Source of the DNA: Gammaproteobacteria bacterium
Lineage (GTDB): Bacteria > Pseudomonadota > Gammaproteobacteria > DSM-16500
Direction: 5' to 3'
Length of the DNA: 31,172 bases
Assembly (NCBI GenBank): GCA_009885665.1
Contig: VFKI01000155.1
Span: 1-31,172, forward strand
Made by a program: the position numbers and the translations under genes. The first letter of the stretch is position 1; each line of letters opens with the position of its first letter. Below the pieces are notes generated by a model. That model was given only the letters and a program-made list of their open reading frames with translations. It had not been told where the DNA came from and did not search any database. Below, one piece after another: positions 6,262 to 17,293 of the stretch.

Positions 6262-8912
<2,651 letters not shown>

Positions 8913-8953
8913 AAACGGCCGCCTTTGGCCAAGCAAAAATAAGGTGTTTTTAA

Positions 8954-11748: not shown

Positions 11749-12318
11749 ATGGAAACCCGCACTGTTTCACAATTACAACAGCTCGCCGAGCGCGCCGAAT
11801 GCCTGCATGACATGACGGCTATTCACCGTGCGCTCGACCGTATGGCAACCGAAATTACGCATAAATTGCAACAGGATAATCCGTTGGTATTATGCGTCAT
11901 GATTGGCGCATTGGTTCCTATGGGGCATTTAGTGACACGACTCAATTTTCCGCTTGAAATTGACTATATCCATGCCACGCGTTATCGCGGCAGTATGCGC
12001 CCAGGCGATTTACATTGGCTGGTCGAGCCGCGCCAATCGCTGGCGGGTCGCGCGGTATTAATTATGGATGACATCATGGATGGCGGCCACACCTTGGCAG
12101 CTATCATTGATTATTGTCAGCAGCAAGGCGCCAAATCCGTTCACACGGCGGTGATGATCAATAAAATTCGGCCGCGCGAAGCGGGCGTTACATTTGAGCC
12201 AGATTTTATTGGCCTTGATACACCCGATCGTTTTTTGATTGGCTTTGGGCTTGATTATGCGGAACACTTTCGCAATTTGCCTGGCATTTATGCTGTTGCC
12301 GCAGAGGATCAAACTTGA
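11749..12318 (+). CDS. hpt: Hypoxanthine-guanine phosphoribosyltransferase
   Basis: PRPP-binding motif VLIMDDIMDGGHTL, DYIHATRY, FLIGFGLDY..FRNLPGIY. GAGGA site favours ATG 11749 over 11716. Confidence 0.88.
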   Translation: METRTVSQLQQLAERAECLHDMTAIHRALDRMATEITHKLQQDNPLVLCVMIGALVPMGHLVTRLNFPLEIDYIHATRYRGSMRPGDLHWLVEPRQSLAGRAVLIMDDIMDGGHTLAAIIDYCQQQGAKSVHTAVMINKIRPREAGVTFEPDFIGLDTPDRFLIGFGLDYAEHFRNLPGIYAVAAEDQT

Positions 12319-14387
12319 TGCAATCACGGCGATCTGCATTACTGTGGTATCTGTTGTTATTGACGATCTTTTTTATATGGATTGAAATAGGCTTTTTGAT
12401 TCAACGTGACCAAATATACTTTGCGGATGTGTCGTTAGTCGCGCAAAATATATCGTTGCCGTGGGTGGCGATACCCGACATTGTCTATTATCTTGTGGTG
12501 CAAATTGCGCTCTACCTTTGCTGGTTATTTGGCATTTATTATCTCATGCAAGGCGTGCGCGCGGCGTTACACCTTACGCCCGCACAGACAGAAAATGTAG
12601 GCATTATCGTATGGTTTATTTCGCTTGCGTTTATTTTATTAGCAAATCAAATAAAGTATCCTGATTCTAAATTCAGTTTTGCTTGGCTAGCATTGGATTA
12701 TCCCGCATTATGTCGATGGGCATTTTATAGCGTTGCGACACTTTTTGCTGTCGTGTGTATCGTTGCATTGCTGGGATTTTTACAAACATTGCCGCGCACT
12801 TTTTTATTACTGACGAGCAGTGTCGCAATTATTTTCCTTGCATTACATTGGCATACAGCGAACCATTTGCCTGTGGTGGATCGCGGCACTACCGCTCGAC
12901 CCAATATCATTTTAATTGGCATTGATTCACTGCGTCCTGATTATTTAGGTAAGAATACGCCCGCGCTCAATGATTTTATGCAGCATGCTGTCGTTTTTAA
13001 TTATTCATTGACACCAATTGCACGCACCTATCCATCGTGGTTCAGTATTTTATCAGGCGAATATCCCAAAGTCAGCGGCATCCGCACCAATTTATTGGAT
13101 CCAGCGCGTTTTGATCTTAGCCAAACCTTACCTGCTGTGTTGCGCCGACATGATTATCACACTATATATGCAACCGATGAAACGCGTTTCAGTAATATTG
13201 ATGAACGCTATGGTTTTGATCAACGCTTGACGGCGCCGATAGGTGTCAATGATTTTTTACTTGGCACGGTCAATGATTTTCCATTATCCAATTTACTTGT
13301 TAATACTCGGCTTGGCCAATATTTATTTCCTTATAGTTATGCCAATCGACCGGCGTATTTTGATTATGATCCAGCGAGTTTTTTGCAACGTATTGCGCCC
13401 ACACTTGCCGAGCGACGCCAACATCCTTTATTTTTAGCGATTCACTTTTGCTTGCCGCATGCGCCTTATTTATGGGCAGATCTTGCAGCAGAAACGGTAA
13501 AACGCGAGGATTATCTCTATTCGGTCGCGCGCATGGATCTGCAGTTCGCCCATTTTATGCAAATATTACGTAAAGATGGTTTGTTACAACATAGCATTGT
13601 GATTGTTTTATCAGATCATGGTGAAGCGTTGGGTTTGCCGGGCGATCGCATCACCGATCCGCATTTATATATTCCCTCTGAAAAATATCAGAAAATCCCT
13701 TTATTTTATCCGCCTATGGTAGAGGATGAGCGTGTCAATGTCTCTAACGGTCATGGTACGGATGTATTAGGCGTGTCGCAATATCATACTGTGTTAGCGG
13801 TGCGCAGCTATGATGTTGCACCTATGCCGCCTAAAACTATAACGGATTTGGTGTCATTAATGGATATTCGTCCGACGCTGTTAGCGTATCTGCATGTGCA
13901 AGATCCGCATGCCAGTAATGGATACTCATTATTACCGGCGCTGCTAGGCAAGCAAACCCGTGTGCCGTTACATACGGATTTTGTCACGGAAAGTGATTTT
14001 TCACCGCCGGCTATTCGGACTATATTTCCAGACACGCACAAAGTATTTTTGATGGGAGTTCATTATTTTCGAATTGATCCGCATACTGGGCGGGTGTTGG
14101 TACGCGATGATATGTTGCATAAAATTATTGCCAGCAAACAATACGCTGACTTTCATGGCGATTGGGTATTAGCGCTTTATCCACGACAAGATGGCAGTCA
14201 ATGGCACGTATTGGTCAATCAGCGCACTGGGCGGTGGACTTTAGATATGCACGATGCATTTGCGCAGCGCGCCCCGGTGCAAAGCATGATGCAGATATTG
14301 TATAAATTCGTAACCATTCAGCACATTTCTCAAAAAACACCCGCGAGGCCAGGTGCAACCAGACTCTACGCGATGGGGGATTCTTAA
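12315..14387 (+). CDS. Membrane-anchored alkaline-phosphatase-superfamily (sulfatase-fold) hydrolase/transferase
   Basis: About 5 N-terminal TM helices, then PNIILIGIDSLRPD, RTYPSWFSILSG, HFCLPHAPY, IVLSDHGE. Start overlaps the hpt stop. Confidence 0.82.
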   Translation: MMQSRRSALLWYLLLLTIFFIWIEIGFLIQRDQIYFADVSLVAQNISLPWVAIPDIVYYLVVQIALYLCWLFGIYYLMQGVRAALHLTPAQTENVGIIVWFISLAFILLANQIKYPDSKFSFAWLALDYPALCRWAFYSVATLFAVVCIVALLGFLQTLPRTFLLLTSSVAIIFLALHWHTANHLPVVDRGTTARPNIILIGIDSLRPDYLGKNTPALNDFMQHAVVFNYSLTPIARTYPSWFSILSGEYPKVSGIRTNLLDPARFDLSQTLPAVLRRHDYHTIYATDETRFSNIDERYGFDQRLTAPIGVNDFLLGTVNDFPLSNLLVNTRLGQYLFPYSYANRPAYFDYDPASFLQRIAPTLAERRQHPLFLAIHFCLPHAPYLWADLAAETVKREDYLYSVARMDLQFAHFMQILRKDGLLQHSIVIVLSDHGEALGLPGDRITDPHLYIPSEKYQKIPLFYPPMVEDERVNVSNGHGTDVLGVSQYHTVLAVRSYDVAPMPPKTITDLVSLMDIRPTLLAYLHVQDPHASNGYSLLPALLGKQTRVPLHTDFVTESDFSPPAIRTIFPDTHKVFLMGVHYFRIDPHTGRVLVRDDMLHKIIASKQYADFHGDWVLALYPRQDGSQWHVLVNQRTGRWTLDMHDAFAQRAPVQSMMQILYKFVTIQHISQKTPARPGATRLYAMGDS

Positions 14388-14458
14388 AGGGGAGAATCGC
14401 GATTCTTCCCCTTAAGTGGCGTAGCGAGGGCTTTGCCCGAGCAGCCATCTGAGAATAG
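14310..14458 (-). mobile_element. Palindromic insertion related to family A, overlapping the 3' end of the sulfatase-fold gene
   Basis: Flanked by direct repeat TTGTATAAATTC (14298-14309, 14459-14470). Contains GCGATGGGGGA (14370-14380, identical to family A minus strand) and a 34-nt hairpin at 14383-14416 resembling the family A central hairpin. Confidence 0.6.
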
Positions 14459-14653
14459 TTGTATAAATTCATTCATTAATGCACAGCACGCGTATTAAGC
14501 CTATTTTTTGCACTTACCGTGTAAAAAACACCTCGCGAGCCCGCCATGTTATGTTAACGTATTGAAAAAACATAAGTGTTTGCATGTGTCCAATTTGTGT
14601 TCTGCTTAGGGTTATCCCTGATGCGACCGAGGCTACCGTGGCTTTCCAAGAGG

Positions 14654-14690
14654 TTAGTCACAGACTTATCCACAGATTCTGTGCATAAGT
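14654..14690. promoter_or_regulatory. DnaA-box cluster with an inverted pair
   Basis: TTATCCACA (14666-14674, perfect) and TGTGCATAA (14680-14688, TTATNCACA on minus) inside a 27-bp palindrome with 12/13 pairs. 7/9 matches at 14654-14662 and 14612-14620. Confidence 0.6.
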
Positions 14691-14747
14691 ATGCGTGTTG
14701 CTGACATGCTTATAAAAGGGCGCGCGTTAAGTTTGCTGCAAACTGCA

Positions 14748-14777
14748 TTGGTATTAGCTATAGAAACTGTTTATACT
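14748..14777 (+). promoter_or_regulatory. Candidate sigma70 promoter of fadE
   Basis: TTGGTA-N18-TATACT, 56 nt upstream of the ATG; AGGAG ribosome-binding site at 14820-14824. Confidence 0.35.
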
Positions 14778-14833
14778 CGGCGAGCGGTTATCGATGACCG
14801 CTTTTAACTATAGTAGCAAAGGAGTGTGCTTAC

Positions 14834-17293
14834 ATGGCGTGGCTTGAAACGATCGTCTTACTGGCAGCCATTATTGGCTTAGGCTATTGGCGCACACCCT
14901 TATGGCTCTGTGGTGTGGTATCCACGCTGTTGCTGGCATATCTCACGCGCTATGGTCATATCAGCCTACTTATTATTTTGCCGATTTGGTTTATATTTCT
15001 TGGGCTCATATTTTTTACCGCCATCAAACCCATTCGTCGTCGCTATATCACCATTCCCTTGATTAAGCATGTGCAAAAAGACATGCCCTCCATCAGTGCC
15101 ACCGAACGCGAAGCCATTGAAGCGGGCGATGTATGGTGGGAAAAAGCGCTGTTTTGTGGCCAGCCGGACTGGCACACTTTACTCAAGATGCCAGCGCCGC
15201 GTCTTACCACTGCTGAGCAAGCGTTTTTGGATAATCAAGTCAACACGCTGTGTGGCATGCTGCAAGATTGGCATATCGTCCAGCAGGGGGATTTACCGAC
15301 TGAAGTATGGAATTATCTAAAACGCGAACGATTTTTCGCATTGGAAATTCCCGTTGAATTTGGTGGGCTTGGTTTTTCTGCTCAAGCACATTCAGCGGTG
15401 ATTACGCGCATTGCGACGCGCAGTATCAGTACGGCGGTTAGCACGATGGTGCCTAATTCTCTGGGGCCTGCTGAATTACTCTTACACTATGGTACCGATG
15501 CGCAAAAAAATTATTATTTGCCGCGTCTTGCCTCGGGCGAAGATATCCCTTGTTTTGCCTTGACATCGCCGACGGCGGGAAGTGATGCCGGCGCTATCAC
15601 GGACAGTGGCGTGGTGTGTCGTGGTGAATTTAATGGCCAAGAAATTATTGGTATACGCTTGAATTGGGATAAACGGTATATCACGCTCGCGCCGATCGCA
15701 ACACTCATTGGCTTGGCATTTCGCTTATCTGATCCTGAAAATTTGTTAGGTAAGGGTCAGGAACCGGGTATCACTTTATGTTTAGTGCCACACCAGCATC
15801 CGGGTGTGCAAAGTGGTCGACGTCATATTCCTTTGAATATGGCCTTTATGAATGGGCCGGTGCGTGGCAAAGATGTATTTGTGCCGCTTGACTGGGTCAT
15901 TGGCGGTGCCGATCGTATTGGTCAAGGCTGGCATATGTTAATGGAATGTTTGTCAGTAGGGCGTGGTATTTCGTTGCCGGCAATGAGTGCTGCGTGTGGG
16001 CAGTTGACATATCGAATGACTGGCGCGTATGCGCGTATACGTAAACAATTCAATGTCGCCATTGCGCATTTCGAAGGTGTGGAAGAGGCGCTGGGTGAAA
16101 TTGCTGGGCGCACTTATTTATTAGAAGCGTGTCGTGTTTTTACGGTTAATGCCATTGATAGCGGTATTAAGCCGGCGATTGCTACGGCAATTACTAAATA
16201 CCATACCACGGAAATGTCGCGCATTGTTATGGCGCATGCGATGGATATTCATGGTGGTCATGGCATACAAATGGGGCCTAACAATTTATTGGCGCAGGGG
16301 CATATTGCGCAACCGATTAGCATTACGGTGGAAGGTGCCAATATCCTGACGCGTAATTTAATTATTTTTGGCCAAGGTGCCATTCGCTGTCATCCTTATT
16401 TACTAAAAGAAATTGAATTATTTGCTCAGCCAGATTCCGCTGAGAAATATATTCAATTAGATGAAATTTTATTTAGCCATGTCGGTTATTTTATTAATTG
16501 TACGATGCGTACACTGTGTTATGGTTTAACCGGCGGCCGTTTTATTCGCTCACCGGTGAGCGGTAAAGTTGCCCATTATTATCGTCAATTGACGCGCATG
16601 AGTAGTGCGTTAGCCTTATTATCAGACCTCACCTTAATGTTATTAGGCGGTGATCTGAAGCGCCGCGAACGTATTTCCGCCCGTTTGGGGGATATATTGA
16701 GCCAACTCTATTTGGCGTCTGCTGCACTAAAATATTTTCAGGATCAAGGTGAGCAAGCGAGTGATCTGGATACGCTGTGTTGGAGTTTGGATTTATGTTT
16801 ATCTGAAATTCAAATTGCGTATGATGATTTATGCAATAATTTCCCGCTGCGTTGGTTGGGTAGGCTATTACGCTGGATGACGTTTCCATTGGGTACAGCG
16901 TATCGCAAGCCACGCGATAAGTTAACGCATCGTATTGCGCGCACTATGCTGGAACCGTCTAATTTTCGTGACCGATTAACGCATTTATTTTATCAAAGTA
17001 AAAAATCGGATGACGCGGCAGCCAGATTGGAAAAAGTTTTTTGTCAAATGCCTGACATGGAACCTTTGTTGAAAAAACTTCGTCAGGGTGACAAAAGTAA
17101 ACAAAACTTTACGGCGCAAGTGCATGCGGCGGTAAAGAAAAATATCATCACCTCAGCCGAAGCAGATAAATTATTATCGTTTCAAAAAGCGTATAACGAA
17201 GTGATTGGTGTGGATGAATTTTCATTTGATTTAAGTCAGCTGTTGACGGATATACCGTTCGCACTTCAAGATGCGAACGCTATCCTTGATTGA
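14834..17293 (+). CDS. fadE: Acyl-CoA dehydrogenase, FadE type
   Basis: 819 aa, N-terminal TM segments, PCFALTSPTAGSDAG, LNWDKRYITLAP, GRGISLP, ITVEGANILTR, long C-terminal extension. Confidence 0.92.
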   Translation: MAWLETIVLLAAIIGLGYWRTPLWLCGVVSTLLLAYLTRYGHISLLIILPIWFIFLGLIFFTAIKPIRRRYITIPLIKHVQKDMPSISATEREAIEAGDVWWEKALFCGQPDWHTLLKMPAPRLTTAEQAFLDNQVNTLCGMLQDWHIVQQGDLPTEVWNYLKRERFFALEIPVEFGGLGFSAQAHSAVITRIATRSISTAVSTMVPNSLGPAELLLHYGTDAQKNYYLPRLASGEDIPCFALTSPTAGSDAGAITDSGVVCRGEFNGQEIIGIRLNWDKRYITLAPIATLIGLAFRLSDPENLLGKGQEPGITLCLVPHQHPGVQSGRRHIPLNMAFMNGPVRGKDVFVPLDWVIGGADRIGQGWHMLMECLSVGRGISLPAMSAACGQLTYRMTGAYARIRKQFNVAIAHFEGVEEALGEIAGRTYLLEACRVFTVNAIDSGIKPAIATAITKYHTTEMSRIVMAHAMDIHGGHGIQMGPNNLLAQGHIAQPISITVEGANILTRNLIIFGQGAIRCHPYLLKEIELFAQPDSAEKYIQLDEILFSHVGYFINCTMRTLCYGLTGGRFIRSPVSGKVAHYYRQLTRMSSALALLSDLTLMLLGGDLKRRERISARLGDILSQLYLASAALKYFQDQGEQASDLDTLCWSLDLCLSEIQIAYDDLCNNFPLRWLGRLLRWMTFPLGTAYRKPRDKLTHRIARTMLEPSNFRDRLTHLFYQSKKSDDAAARLEKVFCQMPDMEPLLKKLRQGDKSKQNFTAQVHAAVKKNIITSAEADKLLSFQKAYNEVIGVDEFSFDLSQLLTDIPFALQDANAILD

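Follow-up and report, generated by a model that had tools for sequence, protein, structure and literature searches.

Can a mobile repeat that lands in the last codons of a gene become part of the encoded protein, and what happens to the gene end that it displaces? This question is raised by a membrane gene of the sulfatase family (alkaline-phosphatase superfamily) in a stretch of 31,172 nucleotides, hereafter the window, which represents positions 1 to 31,172 of contig VFKI01000155.1 (G+C content approximately 45%) in a metagenome-assembled gammaproteobacterial genome (GCA_009885665.1; 1.54 Mb in 193 contigs). The open reading frame (ORF) of this gene continues into a short repetitive element and reads ...SMMQILYKF followed by VTIQHISQKTPARPGATRLYAMGDS and a stop codon, with the last 25 residues supplied by the element. 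[quoted passage not shown] The features that bear on this reading are collected in Table 1.

The displaced end of the sulfatase-family gene

The host gene encodes a recognizable enzyme. Its Sulfatase domain (PF00884, residues 196-527, E=1e-22) scores 81.3 bits against a curated Pfam cut-off of 25, and a search of 5.8 billion proteins returned more than 1000 homologues at 43-49% identity. The start codon is probably the ATG at 12318. AlphaFold predicts N-terminal helices (residues 9-181) that are followed by the catalytic domain (mean predicted local distance difference test score, pLDDT, 84.8; predicted template modelling score, pTM, 0.86), and the last native helix, residues 655-667, is predicted with confidence. 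Alignments with orthologues of 23 related genomes, and with over 1000 proteins from databases, stop at query residues 663-672, and F665 is a nearly invariant column in an alignment of 57 proteins. Beyond the LKxF helix, the tail of 56 homologues is of another kind and loosely conserved, [FY]GxD[IL]TxV, with a length of 2-25 residues (median 11), and only two of the 56 have tails of three residues or fewer. A sequence-only reading of the window had proposed that the C-terminal tail is derived from a repeat, and the comparison bears this out, as orthologues lack the tail, homology ends at LYKF, and the tails of the homologues follow another motif.

The same reading placed the tail between two copies of a 12-mer, TTGTATAAATTC, and these copies, at 14298-14309 and 14459-14470, are the only two matches in the window even when one mismatch is allowed. 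It is conceivable in principle that such a pair is a chance match around a native, single-copy segment of 149 bp, given that about 0.65 pairs of 12-mers at a spacing of 100-250 bp are expected per window and two were observed. However, the bracketed segment, which had been suspected of being repetitive, gives 76 hits of 60 nt or longer when its own genome is searched with blastn, the repeat adjoins conserved family termini, and the orthologues lack the tail. The pair is regarded as non-random because its copies adjoin the termini of a repeat family, and a chance match can for practical purposes be dismissed.

When the insert and one repeat copy are deleted, the sequence becomes ...TTG TAT AAA TTC ATT CAT TAA, which encodes LYKFIH and a stop, and the ancestral gene end put forward by the sequence-only reading is thus recovered. 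The pre-insertion junction would have read ...TTGTATAAATTCATTCATTAA, uninterrupted by the 153 bp of the element. The earlier count of 25 new residues that end within a hairpin of the element also holds, whereas the proposed 12-bp target-site duplication, said to differ from the 8 bp of a sister family (family A), does not. The true duplication is the 8-bp ATAAATTC, the usual length in this family, because the extra TTGT represents the last bases of the element itself, with TT invariant and GT apparently a subfamily variant of AC. Apparent 12-bp duplications can therefore consist of an 8-bp duplication and element termini, a point that deserves attention in annotation.

Table 1. Coordinates of the gene, the element and related gene ends, in window positions unless a contig is named
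Feature	Position	Strand	Basis or remark
Sulfatase-family (alkaline-phosphatase superfamily) membrane gene	12315..14387	+	690 aa as given in the ORF list
Native coding part, ending ...SMMQILYKF (F665)	12315..14309	+	Orthologue alignments, near-invariant F665, last native helix
MITE copy, 153 bp: left arm, palindromic core, right arm	14310..14462	+	Full-length nhmmer match, profile positions 1-150, score 159
Target-site duplication ATAAATTC (8 bp), left copy	14302..14309	.	Within codons TAT AAA TTC; adjoins the first base of the element
Target-site duplication ATAAATTC (8 bp), right copy	14463..14470	.	Adjoins the last base of the element
Left terminal inverted repeat GTAACCATTCAG	14310..14321	+	Conserved first 12 nt of copies; starts GTAA
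Right terminal inverted repeat, variant CTGAGAATAGTTGT	14449..14462	+	Against consensus CTGAATAGTTAC: 2-nt insertion, terminal GT replacing AC
Central palindromic hairpin of the core, near-perfect, 34 nt	14383..14416	.	RNA fold; shared core at about 14362-14418
25 element-encoded codons, VTIQHISQKTPARPGATRLYAMGDS	14310..14384	+	Translation; same peptide frame in other element copies, no counterpart in orthologues
AGA codon at the in-frame stop site of the family	14361..14363	+	Element codon 18
Present stop TAA	14385..14387	+	In CTTAAA, which forms the outer stem of the core hairpin
Old gene end (two codons and stop), ATT CAT TAA (IH-stop), no longer translated	14471..14479	+	In frame with LYKF after removal of the element and one duplication copy
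3' end of ligA (DNA ligase; ORF 6888-8912), ending ...LLQS then NCSGAP-stop	8889-8933		In a remnant of a sister family (about 173 bp)
Cytidine deaminase, ending TIQHNLRKTPAKPDAT-stop	C58:20685-21128		Pfam-confirmed; same frame as the sulfatase-family gene
586-aa protein, element-encoded end NYSDGYSGK-stop	C79:91-1851		Pfam match only sub-threshold
Old yellow enzyme (OYE)-type flavin oxidoreductase, element-encoded end NDYPA-stop	C112:68-1114		Pfam-confirmed
BirA, element-encoded end NHSS-stop	C173:6551-7546		Pfam-confirmed
YggS-like pyridoxal phosphate (PLP) protein, element-encoded end NYSDG-stop	C173:151-840		Pfam-confirmed

The repeat family and its likely mobiliser

The limits of the family were set by aligning 14 full copies together with their flanks, and an nhmmer profile was built from these. 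In its own genome the profile finds 82 matches that contain at least one arm and that jointly account for 0.55% of the genome. The length of full copies ranges from 134 to 158 bp, and most fall between 150 and 157. The terminal repeats GTAACCATTCAG and CTGAATAGTTAC are complementary at 11 of 12 positions and are conserved across copies. An automated scan of elements with these ends found 21 that are flanked by 8-bp repeats with at least seven of eight matches (15 perfect, six at 7/8), and the direct repeats adjoining other copies include CTTATGCT, CGCGGAGT, ATATCACC, TATTCTTT, AATTGTAT, ATCCAGAA, and GAAAAAAC. The right end has the consensus ...ATAGTTAC and reads ...ATAGTTGT both here and in the copy on C50; the right repeats of the copies on C50 and C182 both contain an extra base and have G as their second-to-last base, and the C50 copy likewise finishes with GT. 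From the sequences, the GT-type right terminus looks like a subfamily variant. In having terminal inverted repeats, a duplication of fixed length (8 bp), small size, and many copies without a transposase of their own, the family conforms to the definition of a bacterial MITE. No Rfam family matched within 14200-14850.

Because many of its copies lie at contig ends, this repeat family evidently breaks the assembly, and dozens of contigs stop inside it. Together with a coverage of only about 3x in the examined runs, this could suggest that a repeat copy was misjoined to the gene end in a genome of 193 contigs. Against such an artefact, the same 8-bp duplication is present on both flanks. In addition, Logan unitigs from two freshwater-sediment samples, which show at most one difference, join bases specific to this copy to the flanking DNA, 14135-14343 and 14228-14405 on the left and 14316-14477 on the right. 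A chimeric assembly is thus very improbable, since unitigs cross both junctions with copy-specific bases. The runs may be the assembly's own source and do not represent independent strains. No contig that skips the element was found among the low-depth Logan sediment contigs, which at about 3x are uninformative on polymorphism.

The ends of the element indicate how the family may have moved. Elements of the IS66 family have ends that start with GTAAGCG and produce 8-bp direct repeats at their insertion sites (PMC11946415), and the present family resembles them in having ends that begin with GTAA and in its 8-bp duplications, which agree with the IS66 rule. The MITE ends continue with CCA or CTA where the canonical IS66 end has GCG. 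The genome also contains a complete IS66-family element of 2472 bp (C170:663-3134) that encodes a 133-aa ORF, TnpB_IS66, and a 522-aa DDE transposase, TnpC. Its ends are GTAAGCGATCCAGCA, also given as GTAAGCGATCCA..., and the MITE sequence GTAA-CCATTCAGCA matches them at 12 of 15 positions with one gap in a hand alignment. The best reading of these sequences is that the MITE family was probably moved in trans by an IS66-family transposase such as that of the C170 element. A second MITE family of about 173 bp has nearly the same 12-nt ends and a different interior.

Two observations concern the C170 element itself. It sits at the end of an IS110-family (DEDD) transposase ORF. Instead of a simple 8-bp duplication, a 22-nt stretch of its left flank appears again 17 nt past the right end.

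Downstream of the MITE copy, the intergenic region 14462-14833 is single-copy and has, at about 14522-14541, a stretch of 20 nt, AAAAAACACC-CGCGAG, in common with the element. A relic of a second element copy was considered here and rejected, as only these 20 nt are shared, and the match is taken to be due to chance or too short.

Stop loss, age and fate of the tail

The insertion can be broken down into steps. An element with IS66-like ends (GTAACCATTCAG ... CTGAATAGTTAC), itself devoid of coding capacity, landed after codon F665 and duplicated ATAAATTC, pushing the old end, IH-stop, downstream so that translation entered the left arm and now stops at the TAA in the central hairpin. Codons 1-17 of the tail correspond to the left arm, and the last eight codons and the stop belong to the core module. 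Of the 58 other copies that extend over element codon 18, 54 have a stop there in the frame used by the gene (52 TGA and two TAA), and the sole other AGA at this site occurs in a truncated copy that starts at that point. Because codon 18 is the stop of the family, the tail would be 17 residues long were it not for the change to AGA. At insertion the tail probably closed at the usual TGA, and a later T-to-A change from TGA to AGA would have added eight codons, extending it from 17 to 25.

The sequence-only reading envisaged a capture at a recent stage, which does not agree with the divergence of the copy or with the loss of its in-frame stop. Over its first 95 positions the copy is 90.5% identical to the consensus and equally 90.5% identical to its nearest sibling, whereas for most copies of the family identity is 93-99% with the consensus and 97-100% with siblings. 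Since its divergence exceeds that of most copies, the element at 14310 is considered one of the older members of the family. In the same period the remainder of the ORF has stayed intact and keeps all invariant columns of the 57 aligned proteins, and the enzyme therefore appears to have remained under selection with the tail attached.

It could be argued from this that the tail was co-opted, in other words that the loss of the stop was selected as a longer tail improves localisation, stability or partner contact. The loss of a codon-18 stop that nearly all other copies retain and the intact gene beside an element that has diverged by about 9% are in line with this idea. On the other hand, one event in one genome cannot show selection, the tail is predicted to be disordered, and the tails of homologues vary from 2 to 25 residues, so that this end of the protein tolerates change. 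In addition, departures of the copy from the majority base number 8 among the 78 translated nucleotides and 6 among the 72 remaining profile positions; as the translated part diverges no less than the rest, the tail bears no sign of purifying selection. These differences were counted against the majority base, and a strict count of private substitutions gave two positions, the rare bases recurring among the 82 copies. Co-option is accordingly judged quite unlikely. Residues 670-690 have pLDDT values below 50, and the tail is probably a disordered appendage that is tolerated on the predicted extracytoplasmic catalytic domain. We infer that it is a neutral by-product without a new function, and most likely it has no function at all.

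A different consequence might arise at the level of the transcript, where the hairpin at the stop could alter processing or stability of the 3' end, for example by RNase III cleavage or non-stop decay, and thereby change the amount of enzyme. The stop does lie inside a near-perfect palindrome of 34 nt, and such a mechanism was raised for EnhC and QMITE2 by Wachter et al. (PMC5896051). However, none of the listed public runs that contain the stretch is recorded as RNA, folding of the complete element is not significantly better than that of shuffled sequences (z = -1.48), and on the plus strand the hairpin is not followed by a T-run. We regard this effect as unlikely; it would in any case be compatible with the insertion and would not replace it as an explanation. 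For the same lack of a T-run, a terminator role on the plus strand was rejected. The only terminator-like site in the element is on the minus strand, where the left arm forms a terminator-like hairpin at 14337-14356 that is followed by a T-run.

Several points weigh against the reading of an element inserted by transposition and translated as a tail. No empty site was found among same-genus and same-family genomes and 5.8 billion proteins, where the nearest orthologues reach about 50% identity, and the state before insertion is accordingly a reconstruction rather than an observation. The low pLDDT of the tail is expected in any case, as the alignment has no homologous residues there. Production of the tail is predicted from the DNA, and the putative connection with IS66 draws on end similarity and duplication length. 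Finally, the reconstructed LYKFIH-stop lacks the [FY]GxDIT motif that most of the 56 homologues carry. It seems that the native tail was lost in this lineage before, or together with, the insertion, and this may have occurred by an event that is invisible here; inspection by eye of the three frames after 14471 revealed no relic of [FY]GxDIT.

The outermost bases of the element deserve a separate comment. Where they differ from the consensus in full-length copies (the present one, C132:14310, and C50:1692, C58:20737, C39:4307, C124:2142, and C182:8168), they are mostly identical to the base just past the opposite copy of the 8-bp duplication. In the automated set, such matches occur at 5 of 8 variant positions versus 52 of 202 consensus positions (Fisher p=0.036, a post hoc comparison), and with three hand-scored copies added the variant positions reach about 10 of 14. 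One may speculate that the flanking repeat grows after insertion as variant outer bases come to match the sequence beyond the opposite duplication copy, although we consider this doubtful. If true, it would account for the TTGT of the 12-mer here, for GT in C50, and for TTGAC/GAC in C58, and it would be consistent with short-patch conversion, or with replication slippage that was aborted, involving the two duplication copies when the palindromic element folds back. Growth of this kind would bring the element closer to precise excision and would give rise to duplications that appear over-long in MITE surveys.

Known systems, other gene ends and the shared core

Events of this type are already known, and no new mechanism is claimed here. 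What the present locus adds is the stop loss, the IS66-like nature of the family, and its recurrence at gene ends. The closest precedent, by analogy, appears to be QMITE2 of Coxiella burnetii, which measures 150-190 bp, is present in about 50 copies, and has terminal inverted repeats, direct repeats of 7-11 nt, and a palindromic centre (PMC5896051). QMITE2 is found mostly at the 3' ends of genes, and the EnhC protein of strain Dugway owes its final 33 residues to a copy inserted in frame (Wachter et al. 2018, PMC5896051). As far as the published architecture allows comparison, both families are alike in size, inverted-repeat ends, palindromic centre, position at gene 3' ends, and C-terminal extension of a protein. 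In contrast, QMITE2 is defined by a GTAG REP targeted by IS1111 (PMC5896051), the arms of the present family are seen in this genome only among the 86 searched, and the present tail probably also grew by stop loss.

Rickettsia palindromic elements (RPEs), as Ogata et al. (2000) are cited in PMC10969869, are palindromic repeats, about 150 bp long, whose translations form part of unrelated housekeeping proteins, and the present element resembles them in being a palindromic repeat of that size translated as part of a protein. According to the same account, RPEs typically occupy in-frame positions within genes and leave the host frame open past them, whereas the present element carries stops in the frame used, ends the protein and leaves IH-stop untranslated; it also differs from RPEs as described there in its clear inverted-repeat ends and 8-bp duplications. 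Short repeats that overlap gene 3' ends are a further parallel in QMITE1, ERIC, and BOX, and QMITE1 overlaps the 3' ends of functional genes by 2-50 bp (PMC5896051). These are other element families, and the present overlap is longer (78 nt) with a reconstructable pre-insertion stop.

The sulfatase-family gene is not an isolated case. Counting this gene, six genes in the genome end inside the present MITE family, and the element-encoded tails of the other five comprise 4-16 residues (Table 1). The cytidine deaminase on C58 stops at the TGA of the family and thus represents the 17-codon version of the tail. Within the window, ligA has a second repeat-derived C-terminus: the gene terminates within the initial 23 nt of a remnant, 44 nt in length, that is 93% identical to C41:17600-17643 and begins with a similar type of end, GTAACTGTTCAG. 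The locus may be viewed as a clean case from nature in which selfish DNA has turned into protein sequence in two stages, first by inserting at the end of a gene and then by losing an in-frame stop, in a poorly known, uncultured Coxiella-like lineage in which the other genes serve as replicates. With regard to annotation, novel C-terminal residues in small, repeat-rich genomes should be compared with a repeat catalogue.

The distribution of the element differs between its parts. Among 86 genomes of the taxonomic family that were searched, this genome included, the arms are found in this genome only, and the left arm is absent from both same-genus genomes searched, whereas the core alone has matches in 24 of 85 genomes of the taxonomic family. 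At least 98 stretches of other genomes contain a core palindrome of 24 nt; most come from uncultured proteobacteria or Gammaproteobacteria, and a few of these stretches are labelled Coxiella, Coxiellaceae, Legionellaceae or Berkiellales. The query was the consensus of the other copies, from which the copy at 14310-14462 differs at two bases. Judging by the core in genomes labelled Coxiella or Coxiellaceae, the host looks Coxiella-like.

Within the family, two subfamilies can be told apart by the outer stem of the core, where paired changes separate CTTAAG/CTTAAG from CCAAAG/CTTTGG (for example, C9:11797, C39:4307, and C107:17225 compared with C169:277 and C58:353). Family A, which shares the core, has GTCAGA/TCTGAC at the corresponding stem site. 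The sequence-only reading was therefore correct in noting a core stem that is unlike that of family A and nonetheless pairs, and the CCAAAG/CTTTGG subfamily provides a further case. Pairing or dyad symmetry of the core thus seems to be maintained across subfamilies. A 6-nt insertion, GAGCTA, in the hairpin of the right arm is present in most CCAAAG copies, with the exception of C9, and in some CTTAAG copies.

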